A DNA stretch of 62,033 bases from Deltaproteobacteria bacterium (GCA_016209145.1 JACQWT010000051.1:1-62033), one strand, 5' to 3'; shown: positions 44,423 to 53,983, counted from the first letter of the stretch. Program-made: numbers and translations. Notes: generated by a model not told the origin, from the letters alone.

Positions 44423-45358
44423 GTGGATACCGTACGTCTGTCGCCGACCCAGCTCGGCTACCCGGCCGGCATGCGCGAGCTGTGGCGGATCTGGCGGGGT
44501 CTGCTGGCCGCCTGCGCTCCGCCGCCGGCGCTCTACGTGCGGGGCGTCCTGCCCGCCCGCCGGGGCGTGGCCCTGGTGGGCACCCGCAAGCCCTCTGCCG
44601 AAGCGCTCGCGTTCGCGCGCCGGCTTGCGGCCGGCCTGGGCGAGGCCGGGTACGCCGTCTGGTCTGGAGGCGCTCGCGGCATCGACGGCGCCTGCCCCGA
44701 GGCGGCCTTGGGAGCAGGCGCGCCCACGGGGGCGGTGCTCGCGGGGGGCCTCGACCGCCCCTACCCGGAGGAGCACGGCCCGCTCTTCGAGCGGGTGCTG
44801 CGCCAGGGCGGTGCGCTCGTCTCGCTCTACCCCGACGGCACGCCCCACCGGCGCCCCCTCTTCCTCCGGCGCAACGGCGTGCTCGCCGCGCTGACCGCTG
44901 CAACCATCGTGGTGCAGGCCCCGCACATCAGCGGCGCGCGCTCGACGGCGAGTGCCGCGCGAAGGCTGGGACGCCCGCTCGGCGTCGTGCCGCACCCGCC
45001 ATGGTGCCCGCACGGCGCCGGCTGCGCGCGGGAGCTCGGCCTCGGGGCCCGGCCTATCAACCAGATCTCCGACGCGCTCGGCCTGCTCGCCGGCCCGAGC
45101 CCACCCCGGCCGCAGCCCGAGCCGGCAGCGCCGCTACTGCACCCGGGCGACACTGAGATAGTCACAGAGAATCAAGCACTTGACAGCGAAGAGCAAGTCG
45201 TTTTCGAGGCAGTGGGGCCCGCCCCGCAGCACGTGGACGAGCTGTGCCGAGCGACCGGCATGTCCTGCTCCGCTGCCGTCAGGGCGCTCTTGACCTTGAC
45301 CCTGCGGGGGGTGGTAGTAGAGGGCCCAACAGGCCACTTCCGGCGCCGGCCCCTCTAG
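44423..45358 (+). CDS. dprA: DNA-processing protein DprA
   Basis: VALVGTRKPS..., VWSGGARGIDGA, AATIVVQAPHISGARSTA, and a C-terminal winged-helix-like DELCRATGMS...LLTLTLRGVV. Confidence 0.85.
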   Translation: MDTVRLSPTQLGYPAGMRELWRIWRGLLAACAPPPALYVRGVLPARRGVALVGTRKPSAEALAFARRLAAGLGEAGYAVWSGGARGIDGACPEAALGAGAPTGAVLAGGLDRPYPEEHGPLFERVLRQGGALVSLYPDGTPHRRPLFLRRNGVLAALTAATIVVQAPHISGARSTASAARRLGRPLGVVPHPPWCPHGAGCARELGLGARPINQISDALGLLAGPSPPRPQPEPAAPLLHPGDTEIVTENQALDSEEQVVFEAVGPAPQHVDELCRATGMSCSAAVRALLTLTLRGVVVEGPTGHFRRRPL

Positions 45359-45381
45359 CGGCCGCGTCCTGGCAGCTTAAG

Positions 45382-47756
45382 ATGGCAACAACGCTCGTCA
45401 TCGTCGAGTCCCCCGCCAAGGCACGGACCATCAAGAAGTACCTCGGTGCCGGGTACGAGGTGCTGGCCTCGAACGGCCACGTCAAGGACCTGCCCAAGAA
45501 GCTCGGGGTCGACGTGGAGCACGACTTCCTGGAGACCTACGAGACCATCGCGGGCAAGGCCAAGGTAGTGGCCAAGCTGAAGAGCGCCGCGCAGAAGGCC
45601 GACCACGTCCTGCTCGCCACCGACCCGGACCGCGAGGGCGAGGCCATCGCCTTCCACATCGCGCAGGAGATCGACGGCGGCGGCCGTGGCGTGGACCGAG
45701 TCGAGTTCCACGAGATCACCCGCCGCGGCATCGAGCACGGCGTGCGACACCCGCGCCGGCTCGACACCAACCTCTACGATGCCCAGAGGGCACGCCGCGT
45801 GCTCGACCGCATCGTCGGCTACGACGTCTCGGCGCTGGTCTGGTCGAAGCTCGCCTACGGCTTGTCGGCCGGCCGGGTCCAGTCGGTGGCCCTGCGGCTC
45901 ATCGTCGACCGCGAGAGCGAGATCGATGCGTTCGTGCCCCGTGAGTACTGGAGCATCGGCGCGGCCCTGTCCCACGAGGGCGGCCGGCCGCTCGGCGCGA
46001 AGCTCGTCAGCGCCGACGGGGAGAAGATCGATCTGGGTGACGCCGGCGTGGCAGGCGCGGTCAGCGCGGACCTCGAGCGCGCCACGTTCCAGGTGCAGAA
46101 GATCACGCGCCGCGAGCAGCGGCGCCGGCCGCCCGCGCCGTACACCACCTCCAAGCTCCAGCAGGATGCCTCGAGCTACCTGCACCTGCCGGCCCGGCGC
46201 ACGATGCGTGTCGCGCAGAGCCTCTACGAGGGGTGCGACCTGAAGCAGGCAGGCGGCCCGGTCGGGCTCATCACCTACATCCGCACCGACTCGACCCGCG
46301 TGGCCGACGAGGCGGTGCGCGAGGTGCGGGCGTACATCGAGAAGGTCTTCGGGGCGGGCTCCTTGCCCGAGCAGGCGTGGATCTACAAGTCCAAGAAGTC
46401 GGCCCAGGACGCGCACGAGGCCATCCGGCCCACCCACGTGGACCTGCACCCGGACGCCGTTCGCCGGTATCTCACGAGCGACCAGTACCGGCTCTACAAG
46501 CTCGTCTGGACGCGCTTCGTGGCCTCGCAGATGGCCGCGGCCGTGTACGATCAGACCAGCATCGACATCGAGGCTCGGCCGGGCGTGGCCGAGCGCCGCC
46601 GCGAGCGCTACCTCCTGCGCGCCACCGGGCGGATCCTCAAGAGCCCGGGCTGGCTGCAGGTGACCGGGGGGCAGATCCAGTTCGCCGGCGAGGGCGAGAA
46701 CGGCCACGACGAGGGCCGGGAAGAGCAGCCGGACGGGCTGACGAGCGAGCCGCCGAGCGGGCCGCCGAGCGAACCGCCCGTCTCGATCGGCTCGCAGCTT
46801 GCGCAACTGCGCGCCGCCGCGCTCTGCGGCCGCAACGAGACGCTGCCCGGCCTGCCGGACGGCGCGCTCCTCGATCCGGTCCGTCCGCCGGGCGTAGTGG
46901 CGGAGCAGAAGTTCACCCAGCCGCCGCCGCGCTACAACGAGGGCTCGCTCGTGCGCGAGCTGGAGAAGCGGGGCATCGGCCGGCCGTCGACCTACGCCGA
47001 GATCATCGGCAAGGTCCAGGCGCGCGACTACGTGCGCAAGCTCGATGGCGGCGCCTTCCAGCCGAGCGAGCTCGGCCGGCTCGTGGTGGGCGGCCTGGTC
47101 CGGAGCCAGCTCGATTTCATGGACCCGGGTTTCACCGCCGAGATGGAGGAGGAGCTCGACGAGGTCGGCGCCGGCCGCCTGGGCCGCGCGGAGCTGTTGC
47201 GGCGCTTCTACCATCGGTTCAAGGAGCAGCTCGATCGCTCCAAGCAGCAGGCCGCGTGGAAACCGGCGCCGGAGGAGACCAGCGAGAGCTGCGAGGAGTG
47301 CGGCGCGCCCATGCTCAAGCCGCGCCGGCCGGCGAGACGAGCGTCGTGTGCGAGAAGTGCGGCAAGCCCATGGTGATTCGGTCCGGGCGCTACGGCGAGT
47401 TCCTGGCTTGCAGCGGATACCCCAAGTGCAAGAACGCGCGGCCCGTGCCCCTCGGGGTCGCCTGTCCCAAGTGCGGTGGCGATCTCGTCGAGATCCGTTC
47501 GCGCAAGCCGGGCGGGCGGCGCTTCTACGGCTGCGCCAACTACGCCGCCGAGCAGAAGTGCGACTTCCGGCTCTGGGCGCGGCCGGTCCCCGTCCCCTGC
47601 CCCGTCTGCGGCACGCCGTTCATGACGGAGCGCAAGGGCAAGAGCCCGGCCCTGGTGTGCGCGGACAAGAAGTGCGGCGGCCGGCGGGCGAACGAGGCAG
47701 GCGGCGGCGAGCCGCGGATAGCCGAGGCGGCTGCGCCGACCGAGTCCCCTTCGTGA
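45382..47756 (+). CDS. topA: DNA topoisomerase I (apparent frameshift near 47320-47335)
   Basis: MATTLVIVESPAKARTIKKYLG (Toprim), ITYIRTDS (active-site Tyr region) and QPPPRYNEGSLV. The C-terminal zinc ribbons CEKCGKPMVIRSGRYGEFLACSGYPKC and CPKCGG...FYGC continue only in ORF 46233..47756, a different frame from ORF 45244..47376. Confidence 0.85.
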
Positions 47757-47809
47757 GCATGGCGGGCGAGCTCTCGACACGGTCGTCGCACGGTGCCCAT
47801 AACTCCGCT

Positions 47810-49324
47810 CTAAGGACCCACCTGGGCGCTCTCCGGCCTCCCCACGGCCGCGGACGCCTGGCGGGCGGCCTCGCCCCGGGGTCGCCCCCCGACCCCGAGC
47901 CGGTAGCTGGCAGGGGCACGCCGCCGCTTCGCTCGGCGGCGAGCGTCGTACATCGCGAGCAGGCGCCCGCGCGCGTCGACGATCTCTTGGAGCCGCTGGT
48001 CACCTACGGGCACTCGGACCGAGAGCTGGCTCTGGTGGACAGCGAGCTCGCCCGCGAGGGTGAACAGCTCGTAGCGCAGCCGCTTCGGTCGCGCGTCCCG
48101 GAAGCGCTCCGGTAGCGCGCACCTCTTGAGCACGGTGAGCACGTTGAATGTCAGCGCGTTGATGCGGAACCATGCGGCGTTTGCGCCGAACCGCGCGCTG
48201 GGCAGCACGCCCGCGCCGAGCTCGTCCTTGAGCACCCGGTGCACGTGCTCGATCGTGCCGGCCTTCTGCCGGTGCCAGCGCACGATCTCGGCCGCGTCTT
48301 CGAGATCGTGGCGGTTGCTCACGATGGCGTGGTAGCTGACCCCCTTGCTCTCGAACAGCTCCTGCTGGCGCGGCGTGAACCGCAGCGCGATGTAGCGCAG
48401 CGGCTTCGCGTCGCGCGGCCAGTCGCCCGGCGTGAACTCCACCTCGGCGAGGTCGACCTGTTCTCGCTCACGCGTATCGAGCAGAGCCCACCGCTCCGGT
48501 TCCACCGCGGTGCAGCACGCTCGTAGCTCCTTCGACATGTCCGCGCTGATCGCGAAGCCGATCTTCTCGCTCACCAGGTACTTGAGCAGCGGCGTGTAGT
48601 ACGCCGCCGAGTCGGCACGGAAGCGGCGCGCGACGACCCACGGCGGCAAGTTCGCAAACGCCCGCTTCACCGAGGTCAACGGGTCTTCGCCCCCCGCCAC
48701 GTTGCCGTCGCGGAACTCGTCCGCCACGACGAGCTGCTGCTCCGCCCACACCGCCACCAGAGGCTGGAACCCCCGCGTTCCCTCGTACGCCACCTTCGCG
48801 TCGCGCTTGTGTGCCTCGATGATCGTCCCGTCGTGGTCGATGGTCGCCTGCGTCACGCCAGGCTCGGCGCCTCGCGCCACCAGTTCGCGGTTGACCGCGT
48901 CCAGTGCCCGCAGACTCTCCGACTCCGGCGGCACCCACGCCTTCTTCTCGGGCGGCCGATCCTCGTAGCCCTTCGGGTCGTGGAACTGTCCGACGATGTC
49001 GAGTAGCGCGTCGGGCGATGGAAAGGGCGCGCCGAGAAGCTTCTCCAGCCCCCTGTCCTCCGCCAGCACGCGCACGTCCTCCACGCGATCGCCGCCCGCC
49101 GCGATCAGCGTCACGAGCGCCTCGAGCTTCTGCGCGGGAGCGAAGCCTCGCTGCCGCTTCTGCTGCGGCAGCTCATTCGCTGCCAACTCGTCCAGCCCCA
49201 GCGCCCGCATCGTCTCGACGACGAGCGGCAGCCCGGCCCGGGCGGTGACGTCGTCTCGCTTGGCCTGCACGATCACGAACGGCAAGATACCCTGCCGGCC
49301 GTCCCGACGCAGTCGCAGGCTCAT
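47810..49324 (-). CDS. IS1380-family transposase
   Basis: MSLRLRRDGRQGILPF...TIDHDGTIIEAHKRDA...FRADSAAY...YHAIVSN...WHRQKAGTIEHVHRVLKDELG... is the typical IS1380/DDE layout. The stop lies inside the left inverted repeat. Confidence 0.9.
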   Translation of the reverse strand: MSLRLRRDGRQGILPFVIVQAKRDDVTARAGLPLVVETMRALGLDELAANELPQQKRQRGFAPAQKLEALVTLIAAGGDRVEDVRVLAEDRGLEKLLGAPFPSPDALLDIVGQFHDPKGYEDRPPEKKAWVPPESESLRALDAVNRELVARGAEPGVTQATIDHDGTIIEAHKRDAKVAYEGTRGFQPLVAVWAEQQLVVADEFRDGNVAGGEDPLTSVKRAFANLPPWVVARRFRADSAAYYTPLLKYLVSEKIGFAISADMSKELRACCTAVEPERWALLDTREREQVDLAEVEFTPGDWPRDAKPLRYIALRFTPRQQELFESKGVSYHAIVSNRHDLEDAAEIVRWHRQKAGTIEHVHRVLKDELGAGVLPSARFGANAAWFRINALTFNVLTVLKRCALPERFRDARPKRLRYELFTLAGELAVHQSQLSVRVPVGDQRLQEIVDARGRLLAMYDARRRAKRRRAPASYRLGVGGRPRGEAARQASAAVGRPESAQVGP

Positions 49325-49325
49325 C

Positions 49326-49691
49326 TCAGCTCCGCCGGCGCCGGCGCGCCCGGCGGCGCTCGCGCGCCTCACGCTTCAGGTCCGAGAGCTCGCACGCGGT
49401 CAGCTCGTTGATCACCTTCCATAGCGTCGTGTACGCGCCGAGTGCTGCGCGCACCCTGGCCTCGTCCTCGGGGCGGACGTGCAGCGCATGCGTGCGCCCG
49501 TCGAGCTGCACCGTGAGAAACTTCCCTCCGTGCCGCTTGCCTGGATCGCGGGCGCAGGCGCAGTTGGGGCGACCGCAGCGCCGCAGGCGCTCGACCAGCG
49601 AGCCGCGCATCAGCGGCGCGAAGCTCAGCGCGCGGAGCTGCTCGCGCAGGTCGCGCCGGTGACGCTGGGTCTGCTCGCGGTCGGATGCCAT
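49326..49691 (-). CDS. Small Cys-motif accessory protein of the IS (DUF6788-like)
   Basis: MASDREQTQRHRRDLREQLRALS...RCGRPNCACARDPGKRHGGKF. Lies directly upstream of, and coupled to, the transposase (TGAGATG). Confidence 0.5.
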   Translation of the reverse strand: MASDREQTQRHRRDLREQLRALSFAPLMRGSLVERLRRCGRPNCACARDPGKRHGGKFLTVQLDGRTHALHVRPEDEARVRAALGAYTTLWKVINELTACELSDLKREARERRRARRRRRS

Positions 49692-49887
49692 ATCTGAATC
49701 ATGTAACACTAACCAGATATCCGCTCAAGCAAAAATTCGCCCTTGGGGCGGACCCCCTCCACGCCCGAACCCCCTGCTACTGCGGCGGATCCCGGGACCC
49801 GGCCGACCTTAGAGCGGAGTTATGGGGTGCCGCGCCTGCTTGTCGTTCTCGTGCAGGTCGTGCTACAAGAGCTCGGGGAGCAGTGGC

Positions 49888-51057
49888 GTGTCAGAGCAGC
49901 CAACAACTGCCGTGCTGGGTTCTCGACTGCGTCAGCGTCGAGAGGAGCTCGGCGCCACATTGGAGCAGGCCGCACAGTGGTCGGGGCTTGTGCCGGAGTG
50001 GCTTGCGGCGATGGAGGCCGGTGCGCTCGACGTGACCGCTGGGGATTTCGAGCGCGCGTGCCGCGGCATTGCGGTCGATCCGACCGTCATCTACCGCGGC
50101 GACGACACGCCGAAATGGCGCATGACCCGCTTCCGAGCGGCGTCTACGCCGGACGCGCCGTTGCCGCCGGCCGCGATCCGAGCGCTGGCGCTCGGCGCCG
50201 AGCTTGGACGCGTGCTGGCGAGCCTGCTGCGCCGCCTTGGGCGACCAGTGCCGCTGGAGCAGCACCGGAGGACCGAAGCCCTGCGCTCGGCTCCGGAGCC
50301 GTGGGAGCAGGGATATGTCCTGGGCGAGCGGGCTCGTGCTCGCCTCTTCCCCGATCCCGGGCCAATCCAAGACGTGGAGGCGCTGCTTGCTGATCTCGGG
50401 GTGCACGTGGGCCCAGTCCGGTTCGGTGTCCGGGAGATCGAGGCGGCTTCGCTGTGGGAGCCGGGGGCGGCGCCCGTGATCCTGCTCAACGCGGGGCTGC
50501 GACGCGCGCGCTACGGTCTCTCGCGTCGAGCGATCCTATGCCACGAGCTCTGCCATCTGCTGCACGATGCCGGGGAGGCGCAGATGACGACGCGGGTGAG
50601 CTGGTCGGAGGATGCCGGGAACTACGACGATGCCATCGAGCAGCGTGCGCGCGGGTTCTCGCCGGCCTTCCTTGCTCCGCGGGAGCAAGTTCGGTCGGCC
50701 CTGGCCGAGGAGCTTGGCGCGAAGCGACGGCCCGATGCGCCACGTGTCGTCGGTGCCATCGCGCGGCGTTGGGGCCTGTCGTACGAGGGAGCAATTTGGC
50801 ACGCGAGGAACTGCCGGCTCATTCACGTGGCCGACGCGCAGCATCTCGTGGCGCGCCATTCCGCGTCGCCGCAGCTACCGTGGGCCCACGAGCTCGAGCA
50901 GCCCCTGCCAACTGCGGCGCCCGCGCTTGTGCATGCGGCCCTTCCGGACAGACGGTCCCCGATAATGGACGGGGCCGGCGCCAGTGTCGTGCTCGCCGCG
51001 CTCGACCGGGCCGTGATCTCGGCCGGACGGGCACGGGAGATCCTGACGTGGGCCTAG
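49888..51057 (+). CDS. XRE-family HTH fused to an ImmA/IrrE-type metallopeptidase domain
   Basis: LGSRLRQRREELGATLEQAAQWSGLVPEWLAAME (HTH) and RRAILCHELCHLLHD (HExxH). Probable GTG start at 49888. The ORF-track ATG at 49822 lies inside the IS inverted repeat. Confidence 0.7.
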   Translation: MSEQPTTAVLGSRLRQRREELGATLEQAAQWSGLVPEWLAAMEAGALDVTAGDFERACRGIAVDPTVIYRGDDTPKWRMTRFRAASTPDAPLPPAAIRALALGAELGRVLASLLRRLGRPVPLEQHRRTEALRSAPEPWEQGYVLGERARARLFPDPGPIQDVEALLADLGVHVGPVRFGVREIEAASLWEPGAAPVILLNAGLRRARYGLSRRAILCHELCHLLHDAGEAQMTTRVSWSEDAGNYDDAIEQRARGFSPAFLAPREQVRSALAEELGAKRRPDAPRVVGAIARRWGLSYEGAIWHARNCRLIHVADAQHLVARHSASPQLPWAHELEQPLPTAAPALVHAALPDRRSPIMDGAGASVVLAALDRAVISAGRAREILTWA

Positions 51058-51641
51058 GCCCGCCGCGCTGGATCCTCGACGACGGTGCGCTCGGCGTGCT
51101 GGCCGAGACCATCGCCCCCGCCGCGCCCGCGTCGTGGCCGCCCGGTGAGCTGTTCGTCGCCGAGCAGACCCAGGCCGACGTCGCGCACGACAAGTCAGGG
51201 CGCCGCGTGGCGCTGCTGGCCGTCCGGACCGACCGCAAGCCCGTGATCGACGTCCTCCGCGTGCCGCTCGGTTCGCCAGCGGCGCGTATCCTCTACGATC
51301 ACCTCGGCCGCGGATCCGACGACACTGAGGGCCGGGCAGAGCGTCAGGCAATCGCCTGGGCGATCGACATCGGCACGGACGCCATCTTCGTGACGCACGA
51401 CAAGCGCGCCGCGCTGACCGCGCTCGCCGAGCTCGGGCGCTGCCGCGTGGCGCACACGTTCGATCTCTGGATGCACCTGCACGCGTCCGGCCGCGTGACC
51501 GACGACGAGTACGGCAGGTTGTGCGAGCGGACCGCGAAACGAGACGATGGGTTGCCGGGGGTGCCGTGGCGGATCAAGAGCGCGGCGAAGTGGGTGCATG
51601 CAGGCAAGGACATAGTGATGGCGGGCTGGGCTGACGGATGA
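51048..51641 (+). CDS. PIN-like (DUF3368/DUF4411-like) putative nuclease partner of the ImmA protein
   Basis: GTG 51048 overlaps the ImmA gene end. [11 protein letters not shown]... and [36 protein letters not shown] resemble the GE.e.ia.A......i.DD..AR..A PIN-like pattern. Confidence 0.45.
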
Positions 51642-53020
51642 CGGCACGAGTGAGCATGGCGAGCCAGACGCCCGCCGTCACGGTGGTGGGCGGCGGCCTG
51701 GCCGGCTGCGAGGCGGCTCTGCACCTCGCGCACCGAGGCATCCCGGTGCGCCTCTACGAGATGCGGCCAGCGCGGCGCTCCCCCGCGCACGCGAGCGACG
51801 AGCTCGGGGAGCTCGTCTGCTCCAGCTCGCTCGGCGCCACGGCGCTCACGGGCGCCAGCGGGCTGCTCAAGGAGGAGCTCGCACGCGCCGGCTCGGCGCT
51901 GATGCGCTGCGCCGATCAGACGCGGGTGCCGGCCGGCGGGGCGCTGGCGGTCGATCGGCGGCGCTTCGCCGTGGCGATGACGGGCCTCGTGGCCGCGCAC
52001 GAGCGCATCGAGATCGTGCGCCGCGAGGTCGCGCGCATCCCTGACGAGCGGCCGGCGATCGTCGCCACCGGGCCGCTCACCTCGGATGCCCTGTGCGAGA
52101 GCCTGGCCCAGGCGGTGGGCGCGGAGCACCTGTTCTACTACGACGCCATCGCCCCCATCGTCAGCGCCGAATCGATCGACTGGTCTGTGTGCTGGAAGCA
52201 GTCGCGCTACGACAAGGGCGGCGCCGACTACGTGAACTGCCCCCTCGACGAGACCCAGTACCGCGCCTTCGTCGCGGCCTTGCTCGCGGCCGAGAAGGTA
52301 GCGCCACGACCGTTCGAGGAGCCCGTCTACTTCGAGGGTTGCCTGCCGTGCGAGGTGATGGCCGAGCGCGGGGTGGAAACGCTGGCCCACGGCCCGCTCA
52401 AGCCCGTCGGGCTGACCGATCCGCGCGCGGGCCGGCGGCCCTATGCCGTGCTCCAGCTCCGCGCCGAGGACGAGGCGGCGAGCGCCTTCAACCTCGTCGG
52501 CATGCAGACGCGCATGAAGCACGGCGAGCAGAAGCGCGTCTTCCGGATGGTGCCGGGCCTCGGGGGCGCCGAGTTCCTGCGTCTGGGAAGCGTGCACCGC
52601 AACACCTTCCTCAACGCGCCCGAGTTGCTCGACGAGACGATGCAGCTTCGCGCGCTGCCGGGCGTGTACGTTGCCGGCCAGCTCACCGGTGTCGAGGGCT
52701 ACGTCGAGAGCGCCGCCGGCGGGCTGCTGTGCGCCGTCACGCTGGCGCAGCGGCTTCGGGGCGAGCCCGTGCGCCCGCCGCCCGCCACCACCGCGCTGGG
52801 AGGCCTCCTCGGGTACCTGCGGCGCCGGCAACCGGCGTACCAGCCCTCCAACATCACCTGGGCGCACCTGCCGCCGTTGGAAGAAGGCGACCGGCGCCTG
52901 CGCAAGCGCGCGCGCTACCAGAAGGTGGCCGAGCGGGCGCTGATGGAGCTCGACTCCTGGCTGCACGAGGCGGGGCTGGGAGGCAGGAGCGCGGCCGAGC
53001 CGCGCCGGGGCTACGAGTAG
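51638..53020 (+). CDS. trmFO: Methylenetetrahydrofolate--tRNA-(uracil-5-)-methyltransferase TrmFO
   Basis: [39 protein letters not shown] and [21 protein letters not shown] 51638 overlaps the previous stop; the alternative ATG 51656 fits family N-termini better. Confidence 0.9.
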
Positions 53021-53036
53021 GCCTTGCTACGGTGCC

Positions 53037-53456
53037 TCACGGCGTTGGTATGCGTTCACGCATTGCGGCGCTAGCAACGACGGCTCGCCGAGTCGGCCGC
53101 GATCGCGGCTTACGTCCTCGGCCCGGGTCCTCACGTTCGGGAGTACGCTGCGGCCCGGGCCTCCGGGCGCGCTCGCGCTCGCGGCCGCCTGACGATCCGG
53201 GTGTTGGAATGCGTGAACGGCTACCGGCGTTGACGTCCACGACCGCTCGGTCGTCGTCCACGGCGTACACGACCCGGTAGTCCCCGACGCGGATGCGCCG
53301 CAGGTCGTTGCGACCGACGAGCTTACGGCGCCCCGGCGGTCGCGGGGCCGCAGCGAGCGCCTCGATCCTCCGGAGAACGCGATCGGCCTGCCGCGCATCG
53401 AGGCCCTCCAACTCGCGCCGCGCGGACCGCGCGAGGACCACGCGGTACCTAGCCAC
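53037..53456 (-). pseudogene. RelE/ParE-family toxin gene with its 3' end replaced by read-through into the MITE
   Basis: GTG 53456. VARYRVVLARSARRELEGLDARQADRVLRRIEALA...LVGRNDLRRIRVGDYRVVYAVDD is RelE/ParE-like. After ...VVDVNA the frame enters the element at 53225. Confidence 0.65.
53047..53225. mobile_element. MITE-like element, copy B (179 bp, TIRs GGTATGCGTTCACGCATT / AATGCGTGAACGGCTACC, 6-bp TSD GGCGTT)
   Basis: GGCGTT at 53041-53046 and 53226-53231. The interior matches the reverse complement of copy A. Confidence 0.7.
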
Positions 53457-53646
53457 GGAGCTTGCCCAGCTTGCGGAGCCGGCGGCCGACGGACTCAATG
53501 GTCTCCCGGGGCTCACTCTCGCGCTGCCTCGCCACGATGGCGTCGTAGATGTCCTCCCAGAGCCCGGCGTGCCTCCTCAGGTCGAGCAGGACGGCGAGTC
53601 GCTGGCCTCTGTCGTCCGTCACGAACTGCAAGCCCGGAACGCCCAT
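53449..53646 (-). CDS. Small antitoxin candidate upstream of the RelE/ParE gene
   Basis: 65-aa ORF overlapping the toxin start by 8 nt, which is typical type II TA organisation. Family not recognised. Confidence 0.45.
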   Translation of the reverse strand: MGVPGLQFVTDDRGQRLAVLLDLRRHAGLWEDIYDAIVARQRESEPRETIESVGRRLRKLGKLRG

Positions 53647-53983
53647 CGTCTCCTCCGTCGCTCGACGAGCCAGATCCCCGACCCGTGCTGCGAACCTAGC
53701 ACCGAACCATGAGCCTCGCCACCCGGCGTCTCACGGGACGCCAGCGCCGACGCCCCGGCCCTGGCGTCCGTGGGGCGCATCGGCGATAATCATGCCGCGC
53801 ACGACGCGCTGCGCGGCGCCGCGCCGCGCGCGCCGCACGCTGATGCGTGTGGAAACCTGCTGCTCGAACGGCACGCAGGGCATGGGGCCTCGCGGCGGCG
53901 TCTTCTGCTACGCCGAGTCCCGTGGCAGCGGCGTGCTGTGCTGCCGCGACTGATCTAGCTGTGCGGGCAGCCTACGGCCGCCA

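Follow-up and report, generated by a model that had tools for sequence, protein, structure and literature searches.

The interval between topA and trmFO in a Deltaproteobacteria bacterium (GCA_016209145.1, JACQWT010000051.1) measures 3.9 kb and contains two independent accessory elements, an IS1380-family IS and a two-gene module of 1.74 kb which is located outside the IS. The first gene of the module encodes an M78 (ImmA/IrrE, COG2856) peptidase fused to an XRE HTH. The second gene, to which the first is coupled, encodes a protein of 197 aa that is probably a PIN-type nuclease, judging from its structural model. On balance, we lean towards reading the pair as a putative Rosmer-like/COG2856-type type II toxin-antitoxin (TA) or abortive-defence switch. 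The whole stretch of DNA analysed, 62,033 nt in length, is referred to as the window, and positions are counted from its first letter. The features of the interval and its flanks are the following:

Up to 47756: topA (C-terminal Zn-ribbon ORF), flanking gene.
47792-47796, no strand: left copy of the target-site duplication, GGTGC, the same as 49826-49830 and directly abutting the inverted repeat.
47797-49825, minus strand: complete IS1380-family IS of 2,029 bp with CCATAACTCCGCTCTAAGG as a perfect terminal inverted repeat at each end (47797-47815 and 49807-49825).
47810-49372, minus strand: IS1380-family DDE transposase, 520 aa (NF033539, 238.6 bits; DDE_Tnp_1_4, 4e-29).
49326-49709, minus strand: DUF6788 ORF inside the IS, 127 aa (PF20586, 6.6e-19).
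49826-49830, no strand: GGTGC again, target-site duplication on the right-hand side of the IS, 5 bp.
49838-49887, plus strand: conserved 5' leader of the module with TTGTCG-N18-TACAAG, a CGTGC..CGTGC repeat and GGGGAG at 49874-49879.
49888-51057, plus strand: XRE-HTH and M78 (ImmA/IrrE/CapP-like) zinc peptidase in a single chain, 389 aa (Pfam, fold matches).
51048-51641, plus strand: 197-aa protein with a predicted PIN-like nuclease fold, putative toxin/effector (AlphaFold and Foldseek, family alignments).
51638-53020, plus strand: trmFO, flanking housekeeping gene (GIDA, 300 bits, 2e-89).

The first-pass annotation had described dprA-topA-trmFO as a conserved neighbourhood that is interrupted here by a 3.9-kb insert. 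The neighbourhood was borne out by the comparison of trmFO loci: topA lies directly 5' of trmFO, at gaps of about -7 to 228 nt, in 42 of the 68 loci in other bacteria for which 2.6 kb or more of upstream sequence is available. The adjacency does not extend, however, to the Polyangiaceae MAGs, the nearest available relatives, in which the two genes are apart. As for the insert, the content of the gap had been given correctly, but it represents two separate events, with the pair outside the IS. The HTH-M78/197-aa pair was found at the topA-trmFO site in none of the 80 trmFO loci and occurs elsewhere in unrelated contexts. It is thus accessory (non-core) at this site, as originally proposed, and not universally conserved between topA and trmFO. 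Both IS junctions and the junction between the PIN-like gene and trmFO are spanned by independent contigs from at least two runs of the source groundwater metagenome. A real frameshift in topA was considered and rejected, since contigs of the source metagenome break at exactly that point. No match was obtained in an Rfam search of positions 47000-53800. The host genome is myxobacterium-like.

The mobile element belongs to the IS1380 family: transposase model, inverted repeats, target duplication and length all fit, and the initial IS1380 call was confirmed. Members of this family (ISfinder) carry terminal inverted repeats, are flanked by a target-site duplication of 4-5 bp and measure 1.6-2.1 kb. 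The element described here is likewise about 2 kb long, has inverted repeats beginning with CC and is bordered by a 5-bp duplication. Its inverted repeats are perfect over 19-20 nt (47796/7-47815 and 49807-49825/6), and two copies are present in the window against 0.01 expected. The transposase exceeds the NCBIfam equivalog cut-off of 180 bits for NF033539 and covers model positions 2-416 of 419. In contrast to the family, there is an extra DUF6788 ORF upstream of the transposase gene, which it overlaps by 47 nt. A blastn search of the plasmid collection with the IS found none. The insertion point is situated 57 nt 5' of the start codon of the module (GTG 49888). The pair as cargo of the IS, or as part of a composite transposon, was rejected because there is a single IS, bounded by inverted repeats and a target duplication that leave the two-gene module outside.

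The fused XRE HTH and HExxH ImmA/IrrE gene was recovered as first annotated, and both domains lie above the Pfam cut-offs: HTH_31 (PF13560) was found at 4e-10 (40.3 bits, cut-off 27) and Peptidase_M78 (PF06114) at 9e-10 (38.8 bits, cut-off 22). The HELCH motif is intact (H219, E220, H223) and, together with the downstream E251, invariant in 20 of 20 aligned HTH-M78 partners. In PADLOC, the protein matches 12 RmrA models (1.7e-11 to 6e-4, partial alignments without a curated cut-off) and capP (4.7e-5). Further matches were obtained to the spr1629 antitoxin of NCBIfam (9e-6, below the model cut-off) and to phrog_2439, a 'transcriptional regulator' (3.9e-14). The AlphaFold model has a pLDDT of 89.6. 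Its peptidase part finds CapP (7t5t, 5e-4) and IrrE (3dti, 8.6e-4) as top Foldseek matches, and its N-terminus finds XRE repressors (CapH, DdrO and the C-protein type). No known fold was assigned to the C-terminal part (about residues 300-389), the extreme helices of which are conserved (residues 363-388), with W388 being invariant. The protein is considered a putative antitoxin, repressor and sensor.

The start of this gene at GTG 49888 is favoured by a Shine-Dalgarno sequence (GGGGAG, 49874-49879) and by the alignment with locus L001, a copy of the pair in another context. This copy shares 78% DNA identity with the window, and the homology is limited to 49838-51574. A longer ORF beginning at ATG 49822 was rejected, as that codon lies inside the inverted repeat of the IS and both homologues and Shine-Dalgarno sequence favour GTG 49888. 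The leader motifs listed above were recognised by eye in a comparison of the window with L001. The leader (49838-49887) probably holds the promoter/operator; a scan for E. coli-type promoters found none.

The family of the 197-aa protein has no database model in the libraries searched. The protein gave no match in Pfam, NCBIfam, PADLOC or PHROGs. For PADLOC this includes the RmrT models at E-values up to 1, and for Pfam the PIN models PF01850, DUF4411, DUF3368 and others. DUF4411 and DUF3368 had been named in the first-pass annotation as families to search, and neither was found. A Pfam scan of 84 family members returned only noise, including a single PIN_12 match at E 0.027, and family HMMs found nothing among PDB sequences. 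The comparison profile for hhalign was constructed from a genuine VapC (PF01850) from locus L021 and its homologues; the probability was 0.2%, a weak negative given that this one VapC profile is narrow (Neff 2.6).

It is at the structure level that the PIN-like character first attributed to the protein holds, and not at the level of sequence profiles. The AlphaFold model (pLDDT 89.8, pTM 0.85) retrieves PIN domains as 14 of the 15 top PDB matches in Foldseek, with VapC, Rrp44 and Nmd4 among the best. These matches have probabilities of 0.89-1.00 and target-normalised TM-scores of about 0.41-0.64 for domain-sized targets, but E-values of only about 0.01-0.1 and query-normalised TM-scores of about 0.4. 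Among viral structures, a phage PhoH-family protein is in the top two. The model agrees with the Rossmann-like alpha/beta/alpha architecture of the PIN superfamily, built on a five-stranded parallel sheet. It contains an extra insert of about 50 residues, a beta-hairpin/helix, between strands 2 and 4, and residues 178-197 form a disordered tail which is specific to the window.

Three acids are near-invariant in PIN domains, one following S1, one at the H4 N-terminus and one following S4; a fourth position is variable (PMC5499597). In the 197-aa protein, with positions assigned from the secondary structure of the AlphaFold model, strand 1 is followed by D11 and strand 4 by D118, and E98 lies at the N-terminus of the helix that precedes strand 4. 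Across the 84-member family, acidic residues are conserved at D11 (82/83), E98 (83/84), D118 (84/84) and D139 (80/84). The usual second PIN acid, located after strand 2 (E39), is retained as an acidic residue in just 47 of the 84 members (56%). Four acids at strand ends that are conserved to 95% or more speak for an active site dependent on metal.

Linkage of the two genes is strict. Of the distinct loci whose upstream sequence could be read, all 29 have an orthologous HTH-M78 gene directly ahead of the small gene, with a spacing between a 10-nt overlap and about 12 nt in most of them, and the two families co-vary. In the window, the overlaps noted in the first-pass annotation are present: the HTH-M78 gene and the 197-aa ORF share 10 nt, and the TGA of the latter overlaps the first ATG of trmFO (51638) as ATGA. 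An alternative ATG of trmFO is located at 51656, and alignments with homologues begin at residue 2-14. Loci L001, L002, L087, L106, L111 and L115 have unrelated flanking genes, and several contexts consist of ordinary metabolic genes, not evident defence islands. In a collection of 1.84 billion proteins, the small-protein family falls into 208 clusters when grouped at 50% identity. A tblastn search of the plasmid collection gave no copy of the pair. A self-contained, horizontally mobile two-gene module would best explain this distribution.

If the pair is a TA or abortive-defence switch, as we favour, it could operate as follows. The HTH domain would repress the operon, and the HTH-M78 protein, whose gene is translationally coupled to that of the predicted PIN-like metal-dependent nuclease, would silence this nuclease, likely by direct binding through the C-terminal helices that are conserved (residues 363-388). 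Activation or destruction of the HTH-M78 protein would follow a stress or phage cue, for which CapP, IrrE and ImmA suggest, by analogy, DNA damage, ssDNA or a product of the phage. As a result, the nuclease would be freed or over-produced and may cut RNA, causing growth arrest. Toxicity, neutralisation, trigger, substrate and defence role are all inferred. A more specific and rather doubtful form of this proposal is that the pair constitutes an uncatalogued anti-phage/abortive-infection system, with a CapH-like repressor and a CapP/IrrE-like damage-sensing protease in one polypeptide directly gating a new clade of PIN-like nucleases.

Other explanations were considered. It is unlikely that the pair is a purely transcriptional switch resembling CapH/CapP, DdrO/IrrE or ImmR/ImmA in one chain, in which the peptidase would cut its own or a sister HTH upon DNA damage or ssDNA and thereby derepress the PIN-like effector, with no neutralisation between proteins. 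Such a switch is consistent with the nearest folds of both parts of the HTH-M78 protein and with the leader conserved in L001, and self-cleavage of the HTH has been proposed (PMC5499597; PMC10440598). The effector is, however, co-transcribed behind its own regulator, so that derepression would raise the level of both proteins. Tight translational coupling and co-conservation over the full length, C-terminal helices and W388 included, point to a complex instead, and the protease protein is the antitoxin in validated Rosmer systems (PMC10440598).

Less probable again is a non-toxic pair of stress regulators, where a conventional HTH-M78 regulator would be accompanied by a PIN-like or Rossmann-like accessory factor that is harmless or inactive, e.g., an RNA-processing or ligand-binding partner. 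The absence of a sequence-profile link to PIN toxins and the modest Foldseek scores speak for it, and so do the ordinary neighbours at several loci and the position in a housekeeping operon, where the stop codon overlaps the start of trmFO. Against this stand the four highly conserved acids and a patchy spread in varied contexts that is typical of selfish TA/defence cassettes. We regard it as very improbable that the module is an ImmR/ImmA-like immunity relic, left behind when a prophage or integrative element decayed and lost the rest of its genes. M78-HTH proteins are indeed common in the immunity regions of phages and ICEs, in line with the phrog_2439 match, and the window is rich in mobile DNA, including the IS1380 element. 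Nevertheless, none of the 29 loci has integrase or phage genes beside the pair, a search of 2.9 million viral contigs found no relative, and PHROGs has no match to the small protein. Moreover, homology to the nearest copy (L001) is confined to the two genes and 50 nt of leader.

Modules of HTH-DUF955 (COG2856) and PIN-like proteins, and ImmA-hub antitoxins with PIN-like partners, have already been described (Makarova et al. 2009, PMC2701414; Matelska et al. 2017, PMC5499597; PMC10440598). As in the HTH-DUF955 modules (PMC2701414; PMC5499597), a fused HTH and HExxH M78 gene is followed here by a co-transcribed small single-domain PIN-like protein, and both are predicted to be protease-regulated TA systems. 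The partner in the window differs in matching neither DUF4411 nor DUF3368/COG2405 and in its beta-hairpin/helix insert of about 50 residues. Further PIN-like partner clusters of these modules (PMC5499597), PIN_14, PIN_20 and PIN_26, are not covered by the profile libraries searched. The domain make-up of the putative antitoxin, an XRE-HTH with an ImmA-like zinc peptidase, recalls that of RosmerTA (RmrT/RmrA; Millman et al. 2022; Ernits et al. 2023, PMC10440598). RosmerTA toxins are hypervariable and can change partners, and PIN-like domains are reportedly among the partners of the ImmA hub (PMC10440598). PADLOC would nonetheless not call the locus Rosmer, as the small protein has no RmrT model match. 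The putative antitoxin always comes first in the present family, whereas the toxin is first in 58% of cases at the ImmA/Rosmer node (PMC10440598). In addition, the RmrT of phage Kita depolarises membranes and is not a nuclease (PMC10440598), in contrast to the predicted nuclease here, and RosmerTA are anti-phage systems, whereas a defence role of the present pair is putative.

CapH/CapP, regulators of CBASS, and DdrO/IrrE of the Deinococcus radiation response provide the nearest solved folds for peptidase and HTH, and the logic of a damage-activated protease inactivating an XRE repressor may by analogy be shared. In contrast to these systems, repressor and protease form one polypeptide here, no counterpart of a separate sensor domain was identified in the C-terminal part of the HTH-M78 protein, and the controlled gene would be a single predicted PIN-like nuclease in the same operon instead of a CBASS operon or DNA-repair regulon. 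With VapBC, the pair has in common the antitoxin-first order, the overlapping genes, the location of acids after strand 1, at the N-terminus of helix 4 and after strand 4, and VapC toxins as the best structural matches of the 197-aa model. The putative antitoxin is, however, a 389-aa HTH-metallopeptidase in place of a small protein of the RHH, AbrB or Phd type. The 197-aa protein exceeds VapC in length by about 45 residues, and neither sequence nor profile comparison linked it to PF01850.

HTH-M78 (ImmA/IrrE/CapP-like) proteins are at the centre of a large set of TA/defence modules that are poorly understood. For this set, the question is what the trigger is and whether the protease targets itself, its partner or a phage protein. 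The pair represents a compact test case, with strict gene coupling, two confident predicted structures and catalytic residues clear enough for mutation. The kind of module has already been described; its PIN-like family is one that the profile libraries searched miss. Should the pair be an uncatalogued anti-phage system, it would offer a minimal two-gene model for infection sensing by M78 proteases; in other respects, it is an ordinary accessory cassette adjoined by an ordinary IS. Annotation of myxobacterial and 'deltaproteobacterial' MAGs would be improved by a profile of the PIN-like family based on its alignment of 84 members.

The 3.9-kb stretch between topA and trmFO, which the first-pass annotation described as a single insert, holds two independent insertions, an IS1380 element and a two-gene module.

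Features of the topA-trmFO interval and its flanks
44423-45358: dprA
45244 to 47756: topA
47792-47796 and 49826-49830: target duplication GGTGC, abutting both ends of the IS
47797-47815 and 49807-49825: perfect inverted repeats of the IS, CCATAACTCCGCTCTAAGG
47810-49372, minus strand: IS1380 transposase ORF, 520 aa (NCBIfam IS1380 equivalog, 238.6 bits against a cut-off of 180)
49326-49709, minus strand: DUF6788 ORF overlapping the 5' end of the transposase ORF
49888-51057, plus strand: XRE HTH fused to Peptidase_M78 (HTH-M78), 389 aa
51048-51641, plus strand: small PIN-like protein, 197 aa
51638-53020: trmFO
53037-53646, minus strand, directly beyond trmFO and opposite to it: ParE/RelE-type toxin ORF (PF05016 at 1e-10), with a small ORF upstream

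The identification of the element as IS1380 is confirmed by the transposase score, the inverted repeats and the GGTGC duplication. The IS is a complete 2,029-bp element carrying its own target duplication, and the window holds no further copy of its inverted repeats (0.01 expected). With the repeats still perfect and the duplication intact, the insertion may be recent. Its two ORFs overlap by 47 nt (49326-49372) on the same strand. The two-gene module cannot be called IS cargo, as it lies entirely outside the element. Both IS junctions are spanned by contigs from independent runs, among which no empty-site join was seen at this position. Groundwater metagenome reads match the window sequence (G+C about 72%) at a depth of about 5-7x.

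Removal of the IS leaves a 97-nt spacer from the topA stop codon to GTG 49888. Homology to the nearest copy of the module (locus L001) begins 7 nt downstream of the IS, and a conserved TTG(T/C)CG-N18-TA(C/G)(A/G)AG block, which may be the promoter, lies 14 nt from the element; a scan found no E. coli-type promoter. Since the IS stays outside both the homologous leader and the conserved block, the module's own control region is probably intact. The IS would now interrupt any read-through that ran on from topA to the module and trmFO.

The dprA-topA-trmFO order is, as proposed earlier, a conserved neighbourhood. The window proteins were compared by tblastn with 80 trmFO loci, one genome per species. 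Upstream sequence reaches at least 2.6 kb in 68 of these loci, and in 42 of the 68 topA lies directly upstream of trmFO, usually preceded by dprA; the gap between the topA and trmFO alignment ends in these 42 loci is about -7 to 228 nt. Both the M78 gene and the small gene are missing from every trmFO locus compared, so the pair is not a conserved part of the cluster. This absence, together with variable contexts elsewhere, supports the earlier reading of an accessory two-gene module. The closest TrmFO proteins to that of the window come from Polyangiaceae MAGs (67% and 65% identity) and then Labilithrix (59%). The topA-trmFO linkage persists in many distant phyla and in the window, yet is absent from the four nearest relatives (Polyangiaceae/Labilithrix MAG loci L005, L006, L007 and L012); in L005, a DUF2126/transglutaminase gene occupies the position upstream of trmFO. 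In the window, toxin-antitoxin-like cassettes stand on both sides of trmFO.

topA itself is open in two frames, 45244-47376 and 46233-47756 (47293-47376 affected), and the switch is located within the first C-terminal Zn-ribbon (CEECGAPMLK...). Contigs of the source metagenome break or diverge precisely at 47292-47320; one continues differently, as GCTGGAGC, and in another 103 letters before 47320 do not match. The assembly has probably collapsed between Zn-ribbon repeats here. A true frameshift in the essential topA is disfavoured, since the contigs break or diverge at the same spot.

Linkage of the two genes was studied in 29 distinct loci in which both are readable (public MAGs, Logan contigs and JGI metagenome contigs). 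An HTH-M78 orthologue lies immediately upstream of the small gene on the same strand in all 29, with 38-78% identity and full length wherever the contig permits; loci that seem to have no partner all offer less than 100 nt of upstream sequence. The junction ranges in most loci from a 10-nt overlap to a spacing of about 12 nt. In 12 of the 29, the small-gene start codon is formed from the partner's invariant Trp codon, (G/A)TGG. Across the junctions of loci L001-L121, this Trp (TGG) is the invariant penultimate residue of HTH-M78, and its invariance may be due in part to the overlapping start codon. Neighbours differ at every locus (radical SAM/DUF6880, lipase/ATPase/HsdM, DUF2254, TetR/methyltransferase, DUF1848, TraB), and host G+C runs from 50% to 72%. 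DNA homology to L001 (78%) is limited to 49838-51574, i.e., the two genes and a 50-nt leader. Strict linkage, unrelated flanks and bounded homology thus mark the pair, judging from sequence, as a self-contained, horizontally moving cassette. Searches of 2.9 million viral contigs and 72,556 plasmids turned up no copy.

The first gene was correctly described as a fused XRE-ImmA/IrrE protein. It matches HTH_31 (4e-10) and Peptidase_M78 (9e-10), and no variation is seen across 20 aligned partners at H219, E220 and H223 (HELCH), H226, D227 and E251, or at the extreme C-terminal E384 and W388. In its confident AlphaFold model (pLDDT 89.6, pTM 0.90), the peptidase part is most similar by Foldseek to CapP (7t5t, 5e-4) and IrrE (3dti, 8.6e-4), and the N-terminus to XRE-type repressors (C proteins, ClgR, DdrO, CapH). 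PADLOC models of RmrA (up to 1.7e-11) and capP (4.7e-5) also match, and the NCBIfam 'spr1629 family repressor/antitoxin' does so weakly, far under its cut-off. The start is GTG 49888: it is preceded at 8 nt by a GGGGAG, and this motif, like the N-terminus, aligns with the L001 copy. The IS right inverted repeat contributes an in-frame ATG at 49822, 22 codons before the GTG (49822-49887), so mechanical ORF calling yields a 411-aa chimeric product; this start was rejected on homology and the GGGGAG. At locus L115 (3929-4927), alignment of the HTH-M78 copy reaches no further than residue 321 and an early stop follows, beside a full-length PIN-like neighbour; this copy may be a decaying or frameshifted antitoxin gene.

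The 197-aa protein has no match in Pfam, NCBIfam, PADLOC or PHROGs. A word-indexed search of 5.8 billion proteins gave 23 relatives, all hypothetical and free of Pfam domains, and 208 of 1.84 billion cluster representatives matched at E up to 1e-3 in a full HMM search. Few members are named, and these belong to 'Deltaproteobacteria bacterium' MAGs. GTG 51048 is the right start because the N-terminal WILDDGP motif is conserved; the 181-aa database call is too short. The 20-residue C-terminal tail (51575-51641) occurs in no homologue and is modelled as disordered (pLDDT below 50). Its terminal TGA shares bases with the first trmFO ATG, as the first-pass annotation stated. Since homology to L001 ends at 51574 and the tail is unique, the acquired module seems to end on its right-hand side within the final codons of the gene, beyond which the ORF reads on to the TGA.

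The PIN-like assignment of this protein stood on predicted fold and found no backing in sequence. PIN domains make up 14 of the 15 top PDB matches (Foldseek) of a confident AlphaFold model (pLDDT 89.8, pTM 0.85), including VapC of the F plasmid, Shigella and M. tuberculosis, SSO1118, the Rrp44 PIN domain, Nmd4 and PF0355-like proteins. Probabilities are 0.89-1.00, yet E-values are modest, from 9.5e-3 upwards; normalised to query length, TM-scores fall at 0.38-0.46, and normalised to the length of the domain-sized targets, at about 0.41-0.64. The top two matches in a viral structure library include a PhoH-family protein. Conserved acids were counted in 84 full-length members.

Conserved acids, positioned on the model of the window protein
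D11: 82/83, after strand 7-10
E98: 83/84, second residue of helix 96-107
D118: 84/84, after strand 112-115, VTxD motif
E128: 78/84, within helix 119-129
D139: 80/84, start of helix 137-146

PIN domains have three near-invariant acidic positions, found after S1, at the H4 N-terminus and after S4, and a fourth acid of variable position (PMC5499597). D11, E98 and D118 fit the three; the fourth acid usually follows S2, where this protein has E39 and only 56% of members have an acidic residue. At the sequence level, the lone PIN match of the 84 members in Pfam is a noise-level PIN_12 (E 0.027), a family profile search of PDB sequences gave nothing, and in an hhalign comparison a VapC family built up from locus L021 scored a probability of 0.2%. 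PIN-like is the likely reading of the protein, given its predicted fold and the geometry of its active site.

HTH-DUF955 fusions upstream of PIN-like genes (DUF4411, COG2405, PIN_14, PIN_20, PIN_26) have been proposed as protease-regulated toxin-antitoxin modules (PMC5499597), and the architecture of the pair matches these bioinformatically described modules. Experimentally validated RosmerTA defence systems belong to an antitoxin hub of ImmA-type protease proteins, for which pairing with PIN-like domains has been noted (PMC10440598). Anatomy and linkage of the pair are observed; each functional step that follows is proposed by analogy with these systems. The operon would be repressed by the HTH. 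The main rival is a purely transcriptional switch with no direct neutralisation of the nuclease. In the proposed mechanism, HTH-M78 would keep the nuclease inactive, most plausibly via its conserved C-terminal helices. A stress or phage signal, either ssDNA or damage (CapP, IrrE-like) or a phage product (Rosmer-like), would then lead to self-cleavage or loss of HTH-M78 and release the nuclease. The architecture itself has already been described; what is new here is a putative nuclease family for which the databases hold no model.
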